Made by a program: the position numbers and the translations under genes | In this document: positions 22,886-27,182 of the stretch, piece after piece | Layout of the letters: the number at the start of each line of letters is the position of its first letter | Position numbering within the stretch: the first letter of the stretch is position 1 | Assembly (NCBI GenBank): GCA_965219415.1 | Contig: CBDCNP010000002.1 | Location: forward strand, 5,312,001-5,376,000 | Length of the DNA stretch: 64,000 nucleotides | Source of the DNA: Candidatus Marinacidobacterales bacterium | Lineage (GTDB): Bacteria > Acidobacteriota > Vicinamibacteria > Marinacidobacterales > DATDRI01 | Reading direction: 5' to 3' | The notes under the pieces: generated by a model | What the model was told of the DNA's origin: nothing | Databases searched by the model: none | What the model saw: the letters and a program-made list of their open reading frames with translations, nothing else

Positions 22886-24628
22886 TTAACGCAGTGACTC
22901 GAGCCGGACCGGCTCGCTCAAATCATAAATAACCGGATAGAGCAGATCCTCGCGCCGGTAGGTCACGCCTTGGGCATCGAGGCGCCGACCGATACGCCCT
23001 GCCATGCGGAAGCTGCGGGGGATGAGAGCGACGTCCTCCGCATTCGCTATCTCATCCCGATATGGGGAATAGCGTTCGGTCTGCTCGGGACCGAGCTCCG
23101 AGGTCATCAACAATCTGCCATGAGAGAGAAAAATGTATTTATAGGAGACATAGAAATCGGTATAGGCGTACCGCACCCCGAGCTCCTCGAGCTCCCGAAC
23201 GAACTCACGATTCAAGGCGTCACTCTCGAGAGCACGCACGCCGTAGAGCCCGCTGCCATAGATATTGACCGCCAGAAGCACTCCCGCGGCTAGCCCAGCC
23301 GCCAGCCGAGAGCGTCGGCCCAGCTGTGCCAGACCTGCCAGAGAAGACGCCAGGAAAATGGGAATTACCGAAAATAGAAAAATGAGATAGCGCGGCTCTT
23401 TGGTAAGCCAACCGAACGTACTCTGTGCGAAGACCGCTACGACCAGCATCGCAAAGACGACGAGCATGCTCTCGGCGGTCAACCGTAGCCGAGTCAATTC
23501 GCGCAAACGATCACGCTTCTGGATGATGAATCCGCAAAACGCAGCGGGAAAGATCAGCATCAGAACGACTCGCAATACGGATCCCAAAACTGGTTGTTCG
23601 GTCGGAAAATCCATCGGCCACCAGCCCGTCAGCACCGGAAGCGATTCGACGGCGACCGCGTGGACCTGGGTCGCCGTTCGAACGATGCGTTCGGCAAGAG
23701 TAGACTCGTCGTGCGTCCACCAGCGGTAGCTTTGTCCGTAGCGCGTGAGGTTCCAGAGAAAGAGAGGGAGGTTGCCCAGAAGGAAACCGGCCAGAAACAG
23801 CGCCAGGCGCCCGAGGCTTTTGCGAGTCCAATCCGCGGCAATCAAGACGATCAAAGCAACCAGCAGGTAGTAAGTGGAAAGGATGTGGGCCCACAAGGCG
23901 AGACCTCCCAGGACACCCATCCAAAACGCGCGCCTCGCTCTGTCTTCGGGATCCCCAAGAAGGCGCGCACCGACAGCCAAGAGCGCCGTGCCAAAAAAGA
24001 GCACCTCGACGTAGCTGCCGTCCGCCTTCACACTCCACGCGGTCAGGAATCCGGGAGACAAGATCGCATACACCGCCGCGATGGCCGACTCACTCCGGCT
24101 CAACACGGTACGCGCAAGGGCATAGAGCGCGACGGCGAATCCGGCATAAAGAAGAATGCCCGCCGCGGTCAAGCTCACCACCGGTTCTCCGCTCAGCACC
24201 GTGAGGAACGCCGTAGCATGTGCCTTTAGGCTTCCGTCGTAGGATTCGGCATAGCTGAACACCGGGTGGTGTTTCCCCTCGAGGATGTGCAGGGCCATCA
24301 CGCCATGGACCGCGGCATCCGAGCTAGGAATCCCGTAGGCTCCGACGAGTAGCGGAATGCGAGTGATCAAGGTCAGTACGAAGAACAACACCGCGAGGCG
24401 ATTGTCCGCCCTCTCTTTGAAGAGCTTGGGGGAACCGTTCTGGCGCACGAGGAGCCCGAGTGCGATCACGAAAGCAACGGCTGGGATAGCAGGAGACCGC
24501 AGGAACGCAGGTAGGAAGGAAAGGCTTTCTTTGACGCCGGTATCGAACCAGAAGAGGCAAAAGAGCACATAGGACGCGATTGCGACGGCGAAGGCTCCCC
24601 GCATCCCCATTTTCGATCCTTCCAACAT
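22886..24628 (-). CDS. ArnT/PMT-like (GT-C) membrane glycosyltransferase
   Basis: 580 aa, multi-TM, SSDAAVHGVMA loop after an early TM, and an EPRYL motif. Confidence 0.6.
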   Translation of the reverse strand: MLEGSKMGMRGAFAVAIASYVLFCLFWFDTGVKESLSFLPAFLRSPAIPAVAFVIALGLLVRQNGSPKLFKERADNRLAVLFFVLTLITRIPLLVGAYGIPSSDAAVHGVMALHILEGKHHPVFSYAESYDGSLKAHATAFLTVLSGEPVVSLTAAGILLYAGFAVALYALARTVLSRSESAIAAVYAILSPGFLTAWSVKADGSYVEVLFFGTALLAVGARLLGDPEDRARRAFWMGVLGGLALWAHILSTYYLLVALIVLIAADWTRKSLGRLALFLAGFLLGNLPLFLWNLTRYGQSYRWWTHDESTLAERIVRTATQVHAVAVESLPVLTGWWPMDFPTEQPVLGSVLRVVLMLIFPAAFCGFIIQKRDRLRELTRLRLTAESMLVVFAMLVVAVFAQSTFGWLTKEPRYLIFLFSVIPIFLASSLAGLAQLGRRSRLAAGLAAGVLLAVNIYGSGLYGVRALESDALNREFVRELEELGVRYAYTDFYVSYKYIFLSHGRLLMTSELGPEQTERYSPYRDEIANAEDVALIPRSFRMAGRIGRRLDAQGVTYRREDLLYPVIYDLSEPVRLESLR

Positions 24629-24669
24629 TATTATCTAATAGAGCTCTAATTACCGGAGGAGGTGCGCGG

Positions 24670-25200
24670 GTGGCCTGGATTCGTATGATTCGAGAGAGTG
24701 AAGCGAATGGAGAGCTCGCGGATATGTATCGACGCTACGGTGGACCCTCGGGACAGGTAGACAACATTCTCAAGATCCACAGCCTCAACCCGCCGTCGCT
24801 CGAAGGGCATTTCAAGCTGTACGCTCATCTCATGCGCGGCCCCTCCGGGCTCACGCGCGTCGAGAGAGAGATGATCGCCGTCGCGGTATCTAAAGAAAAC
24901 GCGTGTCACTATTGAATCGAGCACCACGCGAGGGGTCTCCTCCGATTGAGTCGTGATCAGGAACTGGTAGACGCCTTGAAGCAAGATCCTCGCAGCGCGC
25001 CCCTCGAGGCCCGGCAGCGGGCGATCGTCGACTACGCCCTCAAGTTGACGCGAGAGCCGTGGAACGTCAGGCAAGAGGACTTGGAGGCTATGCGAAAAGC
25101 TGGTTTAGAAGACGCCGACGTCTTGGACGCGTGCCAGGTCGCTTGCTACTACGCGTACGTGAATCGGCTAGCGCAGGGGCTTGGCGTCGAGCTCGAGTGA
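24670..25200 (+). CDS. AhpD/carboxymuconolactone-decarboxylase-family peroxidase-related selenoprotein (CxxU)
   Basis: GGAGG RBS and GTG start. REMIAVAVSKENACHY-TGA-IEHH is in frame with ORF 24946-25200 (...AYVNRLAQGLGV). The TGA sits at the second Cys of the AhpD CxxC motif and a SECIS-like hairpin follows. Confidence 0.85.
24913..24947 (+). promoter_or_regulatory. Bacterial SECIS-like element
   Basis: UGA-AUCGAGCACCA-CG[C]GAGG-GGUCU-CCUC-CG. The hairpin starts 11 nt after UGA, with a bulge at position 17 and loop GGUCU at positions 22-26. Confidence 0.75.
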
Positions 25201-25213
25201 ATCCCGGTTCCTC

Positions 25214-26248
25214 CTAAGCCACACAAACGTAATCACGACCGTCCACGAAACCGGCCTCTCCGAGCTGGGCGCGGATCTCCTCACGCGCCGAGACAAACCG
25301 AGCCCCCGCCCGACGACTCAATGCGCCCACCGCGACGAGAAGGAACGTCCCCCGAAGGGTATCGACCTCGGTCGCGGCGATGACCTCCGCGTCGTGGATG
25401 CGTTTGCCAATCTTGCGCGGATCGACTTCCACGAAGTAACTGATTTCGACTCCTCGGCTGGCCAGCCTGCGTGCCCAACCCTTGCCGACTGGGCCGGCGC
25501 CCCAGATTGCGACCGGAGCCCGTTCGGCGAGAAAATTTTCCACGAGATAGTGTTCTTTTAATGAAAGGAAGCTCTCCTCACTGAAGCGGGGATCTACGCG
25601 GCTCGCTCTCTCGCTCCAATCTCTCCATAGGAGCAGCCTCTCGGGAGTCTTCCCGAACTGCACCTTCGCTCTCGACATCCTCATCCATAGGTCGTAGTCC
25701 TCCGGCCAACCGGATTCCCTATAACCACCCGCGCGCTCGAGGGATTCCCGACGCATCATCACCGAGGGATGAGGCAGAGGACTCTCTACGAAGAGATCCC
25801 GCAGAATTTCGTCGTGTGTTAGAAGCCCGTTCACCCAACGTTCGTAGCGCAAGAGCCCATCGGACAACCCCTCGCGGGGGAACATGCGAACGCGCGAAGC
25901 GACGACCCCAACATCGGGATGAGCCCGGAGGAACTGCGCCTGCACGGCAAGCCGCTCCGGTCGGCAAATGTCGTCGGCATCCATGCGGGCTAGGAGAGGC
26001 GCTCTCGCTTTTCGGCTGGCGGTGAGAAGCGCCGTTGCAATACCGCGATGGCCTTGCGTGAAGACTCGAACTCTTTCGTCGGACTCCGCAACCTGGGAAA
26101 GAAGTCGTGGCGTGTCGTCCTCGGAGCCATCATCGACGGCGATGATCTCGAATCGATCGAGACTCTGACAGAAGAGGCTCGCAAAACACTCCGAAAGGTA
26201 GACCGCGGCATTGAAGCACGGAAGGAGGATGCTGACTTCAGGAGTCAT
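25214..26248 (-). CDS. Glycosyltransferase family 2
   Basis: VSILLPCFN, VDDGS, ARMDADD and EDYDLW motifs, plus a C-terminal Rossmann-like domain. Confidence 0.9.
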   Translation of the reverse strand: MTPEVSILLPCFNAAVYLSECFASLFCQSLDRFEIIAVDDGSEDDTPRLLSQVAESDERVRVFTQGHRGIATALLTASRKARAPLLARMDADDICRPERLAVQAQFLRAHPDVGVVASRVRMFPREGLSDGLLRYERWVNGLLTHDEILRDLFVESPLPHPSVMMRRESLERAGGYRESGWPEDYDLWMRMSRAKVQFGKTPERLLLWRDWSERASRVDPRFSEESFLSLKEHYLVENFLAERAPVAIWGAGPVGKGWARRLASRGVEISYFVEVDPRKIGKRIHDAEVIAATEVDTLRGTFLLVAVGALSRRAGARFVSAREEIRAQLGEAGFVDGRDYVCVA

Positions 26249-26273
26249 GTTCGCTCGGGTTATGATAGCCCCT

Positions 26274-27182
26274 ATGGAAATCCCCTTCATTCAAGCCGAC
26301 GTCTTCACCGATCGTGCTTTTGCAGGGAATCCGCTCGCCATCATCCCCGACGGCTCGGGGCTTTCCACGGAACAAATGCAAGCCATCGCCCAGGAGATGA
26401 ACCTCTCCGAGACCACTTTTATTTTGCCCTCCGAGGATCCGTCGGCCACCTTCCGCCTTCGAATCTTCACGCCGGCTAAGGAGCTCCCGCTGGCCGGGCA
26501 TCCCGTGGTGGGGGCTTGCTTCATCCTGGCCCAGAAGGGTCGGTTCCCTCTCGAGGAAGGCACCAACCGAATCTTTCAAGAGTGTGGCGCCGGCGTCCTC
26601 CCCGTCGACATCCATGTCCGGGAGGGCAAAGTCGCTCGAGTCTATATGACGCAGGCGACGCCTCAGTTCTTCAGGAGCACTACCAGCCGCCAGCTGTTGG
26701 CCGCCGCGGTTGGCCTGGACGAGGATCGACTGCTCCCCGATGGGCTCCCCGCCGAGGTCGTGTCGACCGCCGTTCCTCAGCTCATGGTCCCCGCGCAAGG
26801 CCTCAAAGACCTCGAAGCCATCGAGCTCGACCTCGTCGCCATGCGAAAGATCTTCCGGGCCATGGAGACCGACTGCTTCATGATCTTCACTCGGCAAACC
26901 GCGCAACCCAACTCCACCGTCCATGCCCGCATGTTCGCCCCCGAGCTCGGTGTGCCTGAGGATCCCGCGACGGGAAGTGCGGCGGGCGCTCTAGGCGCGT
27001 ACTTGGTTCGGCATGGTGTACTGACCGCCAATCCTACCGCGCACCTGATCATCGAGCAGGGCTACGAGATGGGGCGCCCGAGCACGATCTACGTGGAGGT
27101 CGATGGGACCGACAACGCCCCAACCGAGGTGAGGGTGGGTGGCACGGCTGTCGAGGTCGCGGAGGGAACGATCAAGATCTAG
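26274..27182 (+). CDS. PhzF-family isomerase/epimerase
   Basis: DVFT...GNPLA, NLSETTF, RIFTP..ELPLAGHP and EDPATGSA motifs. Confidence 0.92.
   Translation: MEIPFIQADVFTDRAFAGNPLAIIPDGSGLSTEQMQAIAQEMNLSETTFILPSEDPSATFRLRIFTPAKELPLAGHPVVGACFILAQKGRFPLEEGTNRIFQECGAGVLPVDIHVREGKVARVYMTQATPQFFRSTTSRQLLAAAVGLDEDRLLPDGLPAEVVSTAVPQLMVPAQGLKDLEAIELDLVAMRKIFRAMETDCFMIFTRQTAQPNSTVHARMFAPELGVPEDPATGSAAGALGAYLVRHGVLTANPTAHLIIEQGYEMGRPSTIYVEVDGTDNAPTEVRVGGTAVEVAEGTIKI

Follow-up and report, generated by a model that had tools for sequence, protein, structure and literature searches.

An AhpD-like gene with an in-frame UGA in a Marinacidobacterales genome: sequence evidence for a selenoprotein split in current annotation

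Background

The locus studied here lies in a window of 64,000 nucleotides (nt) from the genome of a Candidatus Marinacidobacterales bacterium, in which two open reading frames (ORFs) called under genetic code table 11, namely 24580-24915 and 24946-25200, share the same frame and are parted at the TGA of 24913-24915. The question is whether this TGA ends a protein, or whether both ORFs belong to one gene, 24670-25200 on the forward strand, in which UGA is translated as selenocysteine (Sec). A preliminary description of the same DNA had favoured the latter: an AhpD-family selenoprotein of 176 amino acids (aa) cut in two by standard gene calling, with a hairpin resembling the Sec insertion sequence (SECIS) of Escherichia coli fdhF behind the UGA and with the Sec machinery encoded elsewhere in the genome. 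According to the comparisons reported below, which are all made at the level of sequence, 24670-25200 is very probably one gene that encodes, with its UGA decoded as Sec, a 176-aa selenoprotein of the AhpD-like, or 'peroxidase-related enzyme', family.

Results

One gene interrupted by a conserved TGA

When TGA is read as Sec (U), 24670-25200 becomes one continuous frame whose only internal non-standard codon is the TGA at 24913-24915, and the coordinates and letters of the preliminary description, with the TGA in a CxxU motif, were found to be correct. In public collections the gene is present as two separate proteins of 81 aa and 84 aa, a split such as had been foreseen. The GTG at 24670 is supported as the start codon because orthologues of other genera carry ATG at the same M-A-W-I start and because the public 81-aa gene call also begins there. 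Consensus patterns for promoters and terminators gave no match anywhere in 24450-25350. The best full-length match in the protein database, among the matches listed, is 60% identical. Measured against two same-genus orthologues (dS 0.43-0.56), the part 5' of the UGA has dN/dS values of 0.149 and 0.109 and the part 3' of it values of 0.111 and 0.145, so that both parts are under the same purifying selection.

Relatives were sought in 41 related genomes, and a match was obtained in 39 of them, a tally that includes the genome itself as well as one genome (G007) from which nothing was taken. The best 35 matches, ranging from 99% down to 45% identity, have exactly one internal TGA each. All 31 loci fetched carry the motif C-[H/Q]-Y-TGA, and TGA stands at the same column in 12 further genes, down to 27% identity, which brings the Sec-form genes from relatives with TGA at this column to 43 of 43, a count that overstates independence since the related genomes are kin. 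The internal TGA is specific, because the terminal stops of the 31 genes are mixed (TAG 15, TAA 8, TGA 8).

One trivial explanation would be an error of sequencing or assembly that turned TGT or TGC into TGA. A difference of one base would suffice for it, and the genome (8.05 Mb in 3 contigs, 96.33% complete, 8.45% contamination) was apparently assembled from a metagenome. However, contigs of four runs from four studies, the level at which the check was made, span 24913-24915 with no alternative letter in any, and one or more of the four runs may be the source of the DNA itself. The same TGA is moreover found in 42 other genes of related genomes, and the chance of such an error is in our view negligible.

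Protein family and active site

The protein read through the UGA matches the NCBIfam model TIGR01926 'peroxidase-related enzyme' over residues 2-173 of 176 with 146.2 bits, against a cut-off of 81.8. It also exceeds the cut-offs of the AhpD core domain TIGR00778 (44.1 bits, cut-off 27.8) and of the Pfam domain CMD, PF02627 (45.7 bits, cut-off 23), but the canonical AhpD model TIGR00777 gave 18.3 bits, and its cut-off of 191.95 was not reached. The family label of the preliminary description is therefore to be kept in a wider sense and dropped in the narrow one: the window protein is not a canonical AhpD, and it belongs to the TIGR01926/COG2128 'AhpD-like' group with the carboxymuconolactone-decarboxylase fold.

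The motif read from the frame is E67-x11-C79-H80-Y81-U82-I-E-H85-H86. Solved proteins with a CxxC motif align unbroken across the UGA, namely 3c1l (E 7.7e-30, query 12-171), 2pfx (1.7e-28) and 6k40 (2.4e-21), and their CxxC falls on C79 and U82, with Sec82 on the second Cys. Since these alignments continue over the UGA, the two ORFs are the halves of one domain. The relay residues listed in the accessible portion of PMC3141380 are Glu118, Cys130, His132, Cys133 and His137 for Mycobacterium tuberculosis AhpD, and Glu36, Cys48, Tyr50, Cys51 and His55 for PA0269; E67, C79, Y81, U82 and H86 of the window protein map one-to-one on both sets with the same spacing. The relay His at +4, to which the preliminary description had pointed by analogy with M. 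tuberculosis AhpD, is borne out by that source, but the portion available did not confirm the accompanying statement, by which the second Cys is peroxidatic.

These results bear directly on the possibility that the TGA is a true stop, in which case there would be either a pseudogene or a pair of independent small genes (81 and 84 aa). Public collections keep the two pieces in the latter way, and translation of the second could begin at an in-frame TTG, 24946. Several facts nevertheless make this extremely improbable. The same TGA is retained in 43 genes over many genera while the rest of the sequence diverges to 27-45% identity; dN/dS after the TGA (0.11-0.15) equals that before it; the two pieces form one domain in solved structures, as seen in the unbroken alignment of query 12-171 to 3c1l; and the TGA sits exactly on the column of the catalytic Cys. 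In addition, the 30 nt between the TGA and the TTG encode the conserved I-E-H-H segment of the relay.

Residues at the Sec column

Outside the related genomes, an all-species genome scan yielded nine distant loci, of which seven carry TGT or TGC at the Sec column and two carry TGA, the Cys forms having the context CHYCIEHH. The preliminary description had proposed a homologue alignment to look for Cys versus TGA at this column, and both occur. Among 120 listed database homologues, the residue is Cys in 62, Trp (W) in 45, Gly in 7, and Arg, Leu and Ala in 1 each, while 3 did not fit. The Trp and Gly entries are most simply explained as TGA codons that metagenome gene callers rendered under codes 4 or 25. 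The His at +4 is present in 62/62 Cys-class and in 44/44 W-class homologues among the matches listed.

The best database match, P0002 (60% identity), has Arg at the column (CHYR). The stop-free paralogues found in the relatives (L055-L062, 37-40% identical) were expected to be Cys forms, which was ruled out: all eight have Ser (AGC or AGT) in the motif C-[D/E/Q]-Y-S, and the Cys forms are found in distant genomes and in the protein database. These eight paralogues retain the first Cys, the Glu and the His at +4, and one of them (L055) scores 92.5 bits on TIGR01926. In such CxxS forms the intramolecular bond cannot arise.

The same genome holds a second AhpD-like selenoprotein gene, G000:C1:1750483-1751010 (L025:1492-2079), which is 29% identical to the first and reads C-Q-Y-U. 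It scores 88.8 bits on TIGR01926 against the cut-off of 81.8, and its UGA is followed by a hairpin of 7 base pairs (bp) whose loop, CGGGCU, begins 28 nt from the U. Both same-genus genomes have TGA-bearing orthologues of it.

Sec machinery of the genome

The machinery for Sec, which the preliminary description had assumed to be encoded elsewhere, turned up in the genome search: selA, selB, selD and tRNA-Sec all score above their cut-offs (Table 1), and SelD is probably itself a selenoprotein. ARAGORN predicts 49 tRNAs in the whole genome, among which the sole tca anticodon is that of tRNA-SeC, and tRNA-Trp has cca. TGA terminates 10 of the 34 open frames of at least 300 codons in the window, as well as the selenoprotein gene itself.

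With these data we can consider whether read-through inserts a residue other than Sec, the UGA being either reassigned to Trp or Gly or suppressed by a near-cognate Trp or Cys tRNA. Misreading of UGA by Cys-tRNA or Trp-tRNA is known in bacteria, and the Trp in 45/120 and Gly in 7/120 listed homologues are what codes 4 or 25 would print for TGA. Against this stand the tRNA set, in which the only UCA anticodon belongs to tRNA-Sec and tRNA-Trp is CCA; the use of TGA to end the gene itself (25198-25200) and the other long window frames just mentioned; the complete Sec machinery, including a SelD with an in-frame TGA; the hairpin at fdhF spacing after the UGA, described below; and the column itself, which is that of the redox Cys, so that Trp or Gly would kill the motif. 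Taken together they make read-through of this kind very unlikely, and decoding of the UGA as Sec remains our preferred reading.

The hairpin downstream of the UGA

Numbering the U of UGA as 1, the 24 nt of 24924-24947 folded alone give -6.6 kcal/mol, with the pairs C15-G32 and G16-C31, a bulged C17, and G18-G21 paired with C27-C30. This is identical to the hairpin of the preliminary description, with its 11-nt spacing, its bulge at position 17 and its GGUCU loop. A 38-nt fold that takes in flanking pairs reaches -8.0 kcal/mol, and long stems comparable to the possible extended helix of Table 1 occur in several orthologues.

The comparison with fdhF was made on the sequence of E. coli K-12 (NC_000913.3), and the shared spacing, the bulged U17 and the GGUCU at 22-26 that had been stated for fdhF were all found there. 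The fdhF element has the pairs G15-C31 and G16-C30, the U17 bulge, a 3-bp upper stem, an energy of -5.7 kcal/mol and a loop of 6 nt (A21 G22 G23 U24 C25 U26), as compared with the 5-nt loop G22 G23 U24 C25 U26 in the window. As in fdhF, the window hairpin starts 11 nt after the UGA and has a pyrimidine bulge at 17, GGUCU at 22-26 and a similar minimal-hairpin stability; unlike fdhF, it has C and not U in the bulge, 4 bp and not 3 in the upper stem, and a differing stem sequence. In fdhF, G23, U24 and the bulged U17 are contacts of SelB, and by analogy SelB may bind the window hairpin as well.

Fig. 2 of PMC13188914, a source available in part, gives a consensus for bacterial SECIS (bSECIS) elements with a loop of 3-9 nt, an upper stem of 4-16 bp, a G at loop position 1 or 2, a distance of 16-37 nt between UGA and loop and a minimum free energy (MFE) of -7.5 kcal/mol or lower. 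The hairpin in the window has a loop of 5 nt, an upper stem of 4 bp, a spacing of 18 nt and an energy of -6.6 kcal/mol for the core or -8.0 kcal/mol with flanks.

The hairpin across the family

Counted from the U of UGA, positions 22, 25, 26 and 28 do not vary in an alignment of 30 sequences. When an fdhF-like fixed structure (structure A) is imposed on this alignment, 73.4% of the cells are paired, against 29-63% with slid partner columns, and 0 of 500 shuffles reach that value. The loop-closing pair in 29 distinct sequences is GC in 21, AU in 5, GU in 1 and unpaired in 2, and the change from A-U to G-C takes place at synonymous third positions (AGA/AGG for Arg, CTT/CTC for Leu). A hairpin of at least 6 bp with the loop starting at nt 20-22 is found in 29 of 43 Sec genes, in 631 of 8600 synonymous recodings and in 1 of 8 Ser-form paralogues; a hairpin at this position is strongly enriched family-wide over synonymous recodings. 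The family-wide effect on MFE is modest, the mean z against recodings being -0.83 for the 43 Sec genes (8/43 at <=0.05) and +0.64 for 7 Ser-form genes (L059 left out).

Clades with other peptides after Sec (HHGAGLR, AHGEDLR, AHAHDLREEV) have different hairpins, with G-rich loops that start at nt 20-21 or 28. A single fixed structure for all clades was tried and rejected: structure A is above controls, but structure B, in the register of the f2 clade, is not when applied to the whole alignment.

In the window gene the loop G22 and G23 are supplied by the Gly89 codon (24934-24936), at +7 from Sec. Gly at +7 occurs in 44/44 W-class and 4/62 Cys-class database homologues among the matches listed, and in 6/7 Cys-form loci of distant genomes. 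A strict tie of this Gly to Sec was rejected on account of these six Cys-form loci, and what is left is a tendency; the Gly may reflect a constraint of the RNA on the protein, though not a clean one.

Contigs of other organisms matched the gene only in 24907-24944, that is the 38 nt from CHY through the UGA to the hairpin, with 2-3 differences. This is the most conserved DNA of the gene. Two such foreign contigs have depths of 117.5 and 127.6, several times the own depth of the window contig, and orthologues of the gene are evidently abundant in those samples.

Points weighing against Sec decoding

A number of observations, besides the kinship of the genomes counted above, weigh against the selenoprotein assignment and should be set beside it. 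Most concern the hairpin of the window gene. The minimum-energy structure of a 63-nt context does not include it; dinucleotide shuffles are not surpassed by any of the folds made in the window (z +1.03 to -0.78); in stability the region does not exceed synonymous recodings of its own gene (z +0.44); and 267 of 2000 such recodings also give a stem of at least 4 bp at the same place. The own-gene hairpin is thus not beyond chance, because recodings often match it and because no fold beats the shuffles; what does go beyond chance is the conservation among relatives, with the internal TGA in 31/31 loci and 12 further genes. Rfam covariance models run on 24600-25300 gave 0 matches at E <= 10. The core misses the limit of -7.5 kcal/mol unless flanking pairs are counted, and the upper stem has only 4 bp. 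At the family level, structure B does not rise above controls, and our own implementation of the bSECIS consensus (not bSECISearch) passes 42/43 Sec genes but also 8/8 Ser-form genes and 1362/1720 recodings; a pass is uninformative here because Ser-form genes and most recodings pass too. In such tests of fold stability the proven fdhF element is unremarkable too (z -1.15 to -1.28).

As for the genome and its expression, none of the listed sequencing runs that hold the stretch is recorded as RNA. With 8.45% contamination a sel gene could in principle stem from a contaminant contig; to this may be countered that selA, selD and tRNA-Sec lie on contig C3, the same contig as the window.

Table 1. 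Features of the selenoprotein locus, of its neighbourhood and of the Sec machinery of the genome
Feature	Position	Strand	Basis or remark
Whole coding sequence, predicted AhpD-like (TIGR01926) selenoprotein	24670..25200	+	176 aa; GTG start 24670; terminal stop TGA 25198-25200
Shine-Dalgarno-like GGAGGAGG	24655..24662	+	7 nt upstream of GTG; read from the letters, function putative
Glu67 codon, relay Glu of E-x11-C-x-Y-U-x3-H	24868..24870	+	sequence; motif compared with PA0269 and M. tuberculosis AhpD
Cys79 codon TGT, first position of CxxU, presumed resolving Cys	24904..24906	+	aligned to the first CxxC Cys of 3c1l, 2pfx and 6k40
UGA, putatively read as Sec82	24913..24915	+	conserved TGA; second CxxC Cys in solved structures; TGT/TGC in distant loci
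His86 codon, His at +4 from Sec	24925..24927	+	sequence
Core SECIS-like hairpin	24927..24944	+	24927-24928 pair with 24943-24944; C 24929 bulged; 24930-24933 pair with 24939-24942; loop GGUCU 24934-24938
Possible extended lower helix enclosing the UGA (predicted)	24905..24957	+	56-nt fold -16.2 kcal/mol, z -0.78, not significant
580-aa ORF	22886-24628	-	no Pfam family (E <= 0.001); hydrophobic sequence suggesting a multi-pass membrane protein; orientation divergent to that of the selenoprotein gene
Family-2 glycosyltransferase	25214-26290	-	
PhzF-like protein	26211-27182	+	
selA	contig C3		569.7 bits, above cut-off
selB	contig C2		375.8 bits, above cut-off
selD	G000:C3:3889655-3890587 (L011)		328.3 bits, above cut-off; one in-frame TGA inside
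tRNA-Sec	contig C3		69.7 bits, above cut-off; anticodon tca

Discussion

Relation to known AhpD-like selenoproteins

The family to which the gene belongs is well known, and the preliminary description had pointed to reports of AhpD-like selenoproteins from genome surveys. In the accessible parts of the literature, 27 AhpD-like CxxU selenoprotein sequences of COG2128 are reported from the Sargasso Sea with their SECIS drawn (PMC1088965), the GOS family 'AhpD-like 1' (COG2128, CxxU) is listed in Table 2 of PMC2398784 with 299 selenoproteins and 902 Cys homologues, and AhpD-like selenoproteins are noted in complete genomes too (PMC1794560). A review of 2026 has a row 'AhpD-like protein, TIGR01926, CxxU' (PMC13188914), and the paper on BSepDB, in the portion available, describes such genes as commonly truncated in annotations (PMC13326102). 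The window gene shares with this family the same hidden Markov model family, the motif, the occurrence of both Cys and Sec homologues and a hairpin with G in the apical loop, and nothing essential is different. The gene is a new and mis-annotated member of this family, and it is real but ordinary, because the selenoprotein family has been described since 2005. No concept is changed by it, the family, the CxxU motif and the SECIS having been in the literature since that year.

What is corrected is the annotation: two 'hypothetical' fragments of 81 aa and 84 aa are to be regarded as one selenoenzyme, and likewise the orthologues in at least 30 related genomes. The lineage also seems to use Sec actively, to judge from a Sec-containing SelD and two AhpD-like selenoproteins predicted in one genome. 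Our literature search returned surveys, reviews and one unrelated preprint, and no biochemical study of a Sec-containing member of the family. The fdhF element is recognised by E. coli SelB, and the window gene, whose SECIS core shares with fdhF the spacing, the bulge position and the GGUCU loop, lends itself naturally to what would be the first biochemical work on an AhpD-like selenoprotein.

Among solved structures, 6k40 (DR1765 of Deinococcus radiodurans), 3c1l (Mlr4105), 2pfx, 2prr and 2oyo are full-length relatives (E 2.4e-21 to 7.7e-30) with the E-x11-CxxC-x3-H core, and all have Cys where the window protein has Sec. The latter four are uncharacterised structures, and DR1765 is the closest characterised relative; the accessible portion of the review PMC8945050 reports that its mutant is sensitive to H2O2 and that complementation depends on the CxxC cysteines. 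M. tuberculosis AhpD, a member of another subfamily, has in common with the window protein the relay pattern of Glu, Cys, any residue, an aromatic residue or His, Cys, and His at +4 (PMC3141380, in the part available). By analogy with that enzyme, the window protein probably works as a redox partner of a peroxiredoxin, with weak peroxidase activity.

A proposed course of decoding and catalysis

The sequence data show that this is one gene of the stated family, with a conserved UGA, a Cys/Sec pair at its column and the Sec machinery in the same genome; the course proposed below, from selenium insertion and SelB binding to the substrate, partner and reductant, is inferred from them. The hairpin 11 nt downstream of the UGA, with G22 G23 U24 in its apical loop, would recruit SelB, and tRNA-Sec delivered by SelB would decode the UGA at 24913-24915. 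Sec82 would then take the place of the second Cys of CxxC within E67-x11-C79-H-Y81-U82-x3-H86. In AhpD the second Cys of the CxxC is the attacking one. The selenolate of Sec82 could correspondingly attack an oxidised substrate, which may be a peroxide or, more likely, an oxidised Cys of a peroxiredoxin-type partner; Cys79 would resolve the adduct to give a selenenylsulfide, which a thiol system would then re-reduce.

A broader picture can be drawn as well, though we hold it to be rather unlikely as a whole. In it the Sec form would be standard in this order of Vicinamibacteria and would serve a detoxification module, either peroxiredoxin-type or quinone/nitro-reducing, as its selenium-dependent recycling partner, and thanks to the fdhF-like core E. 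coli would be able to express the gene directly as a selenoprotein. If it were true, this would be the first biochemically tractable AhpD-like selenoenzyme. The role as a recycling partner is hinted at because nitroreductase, 1-Cys peroxiredoxin and PhzF-like genes are neighbours in the scanned loci.

Neighbouring genes

No ahpC adjoins the window gene, whose neighbours are given in Table 1. Of the nine loci scanned, five have a PhzF-like gene no farther than 1-2 kb from the selenoprotein gene (the window locus and L026, L028, L031, L041, L045 and L048 being among those examined). In two of the nine (L045 and L048) the gene immediately upstream, on the same strand, encodes a nitroreductase, and in L045 a 1-Cys peroxiredoxin gene precedes the nitroreductase.

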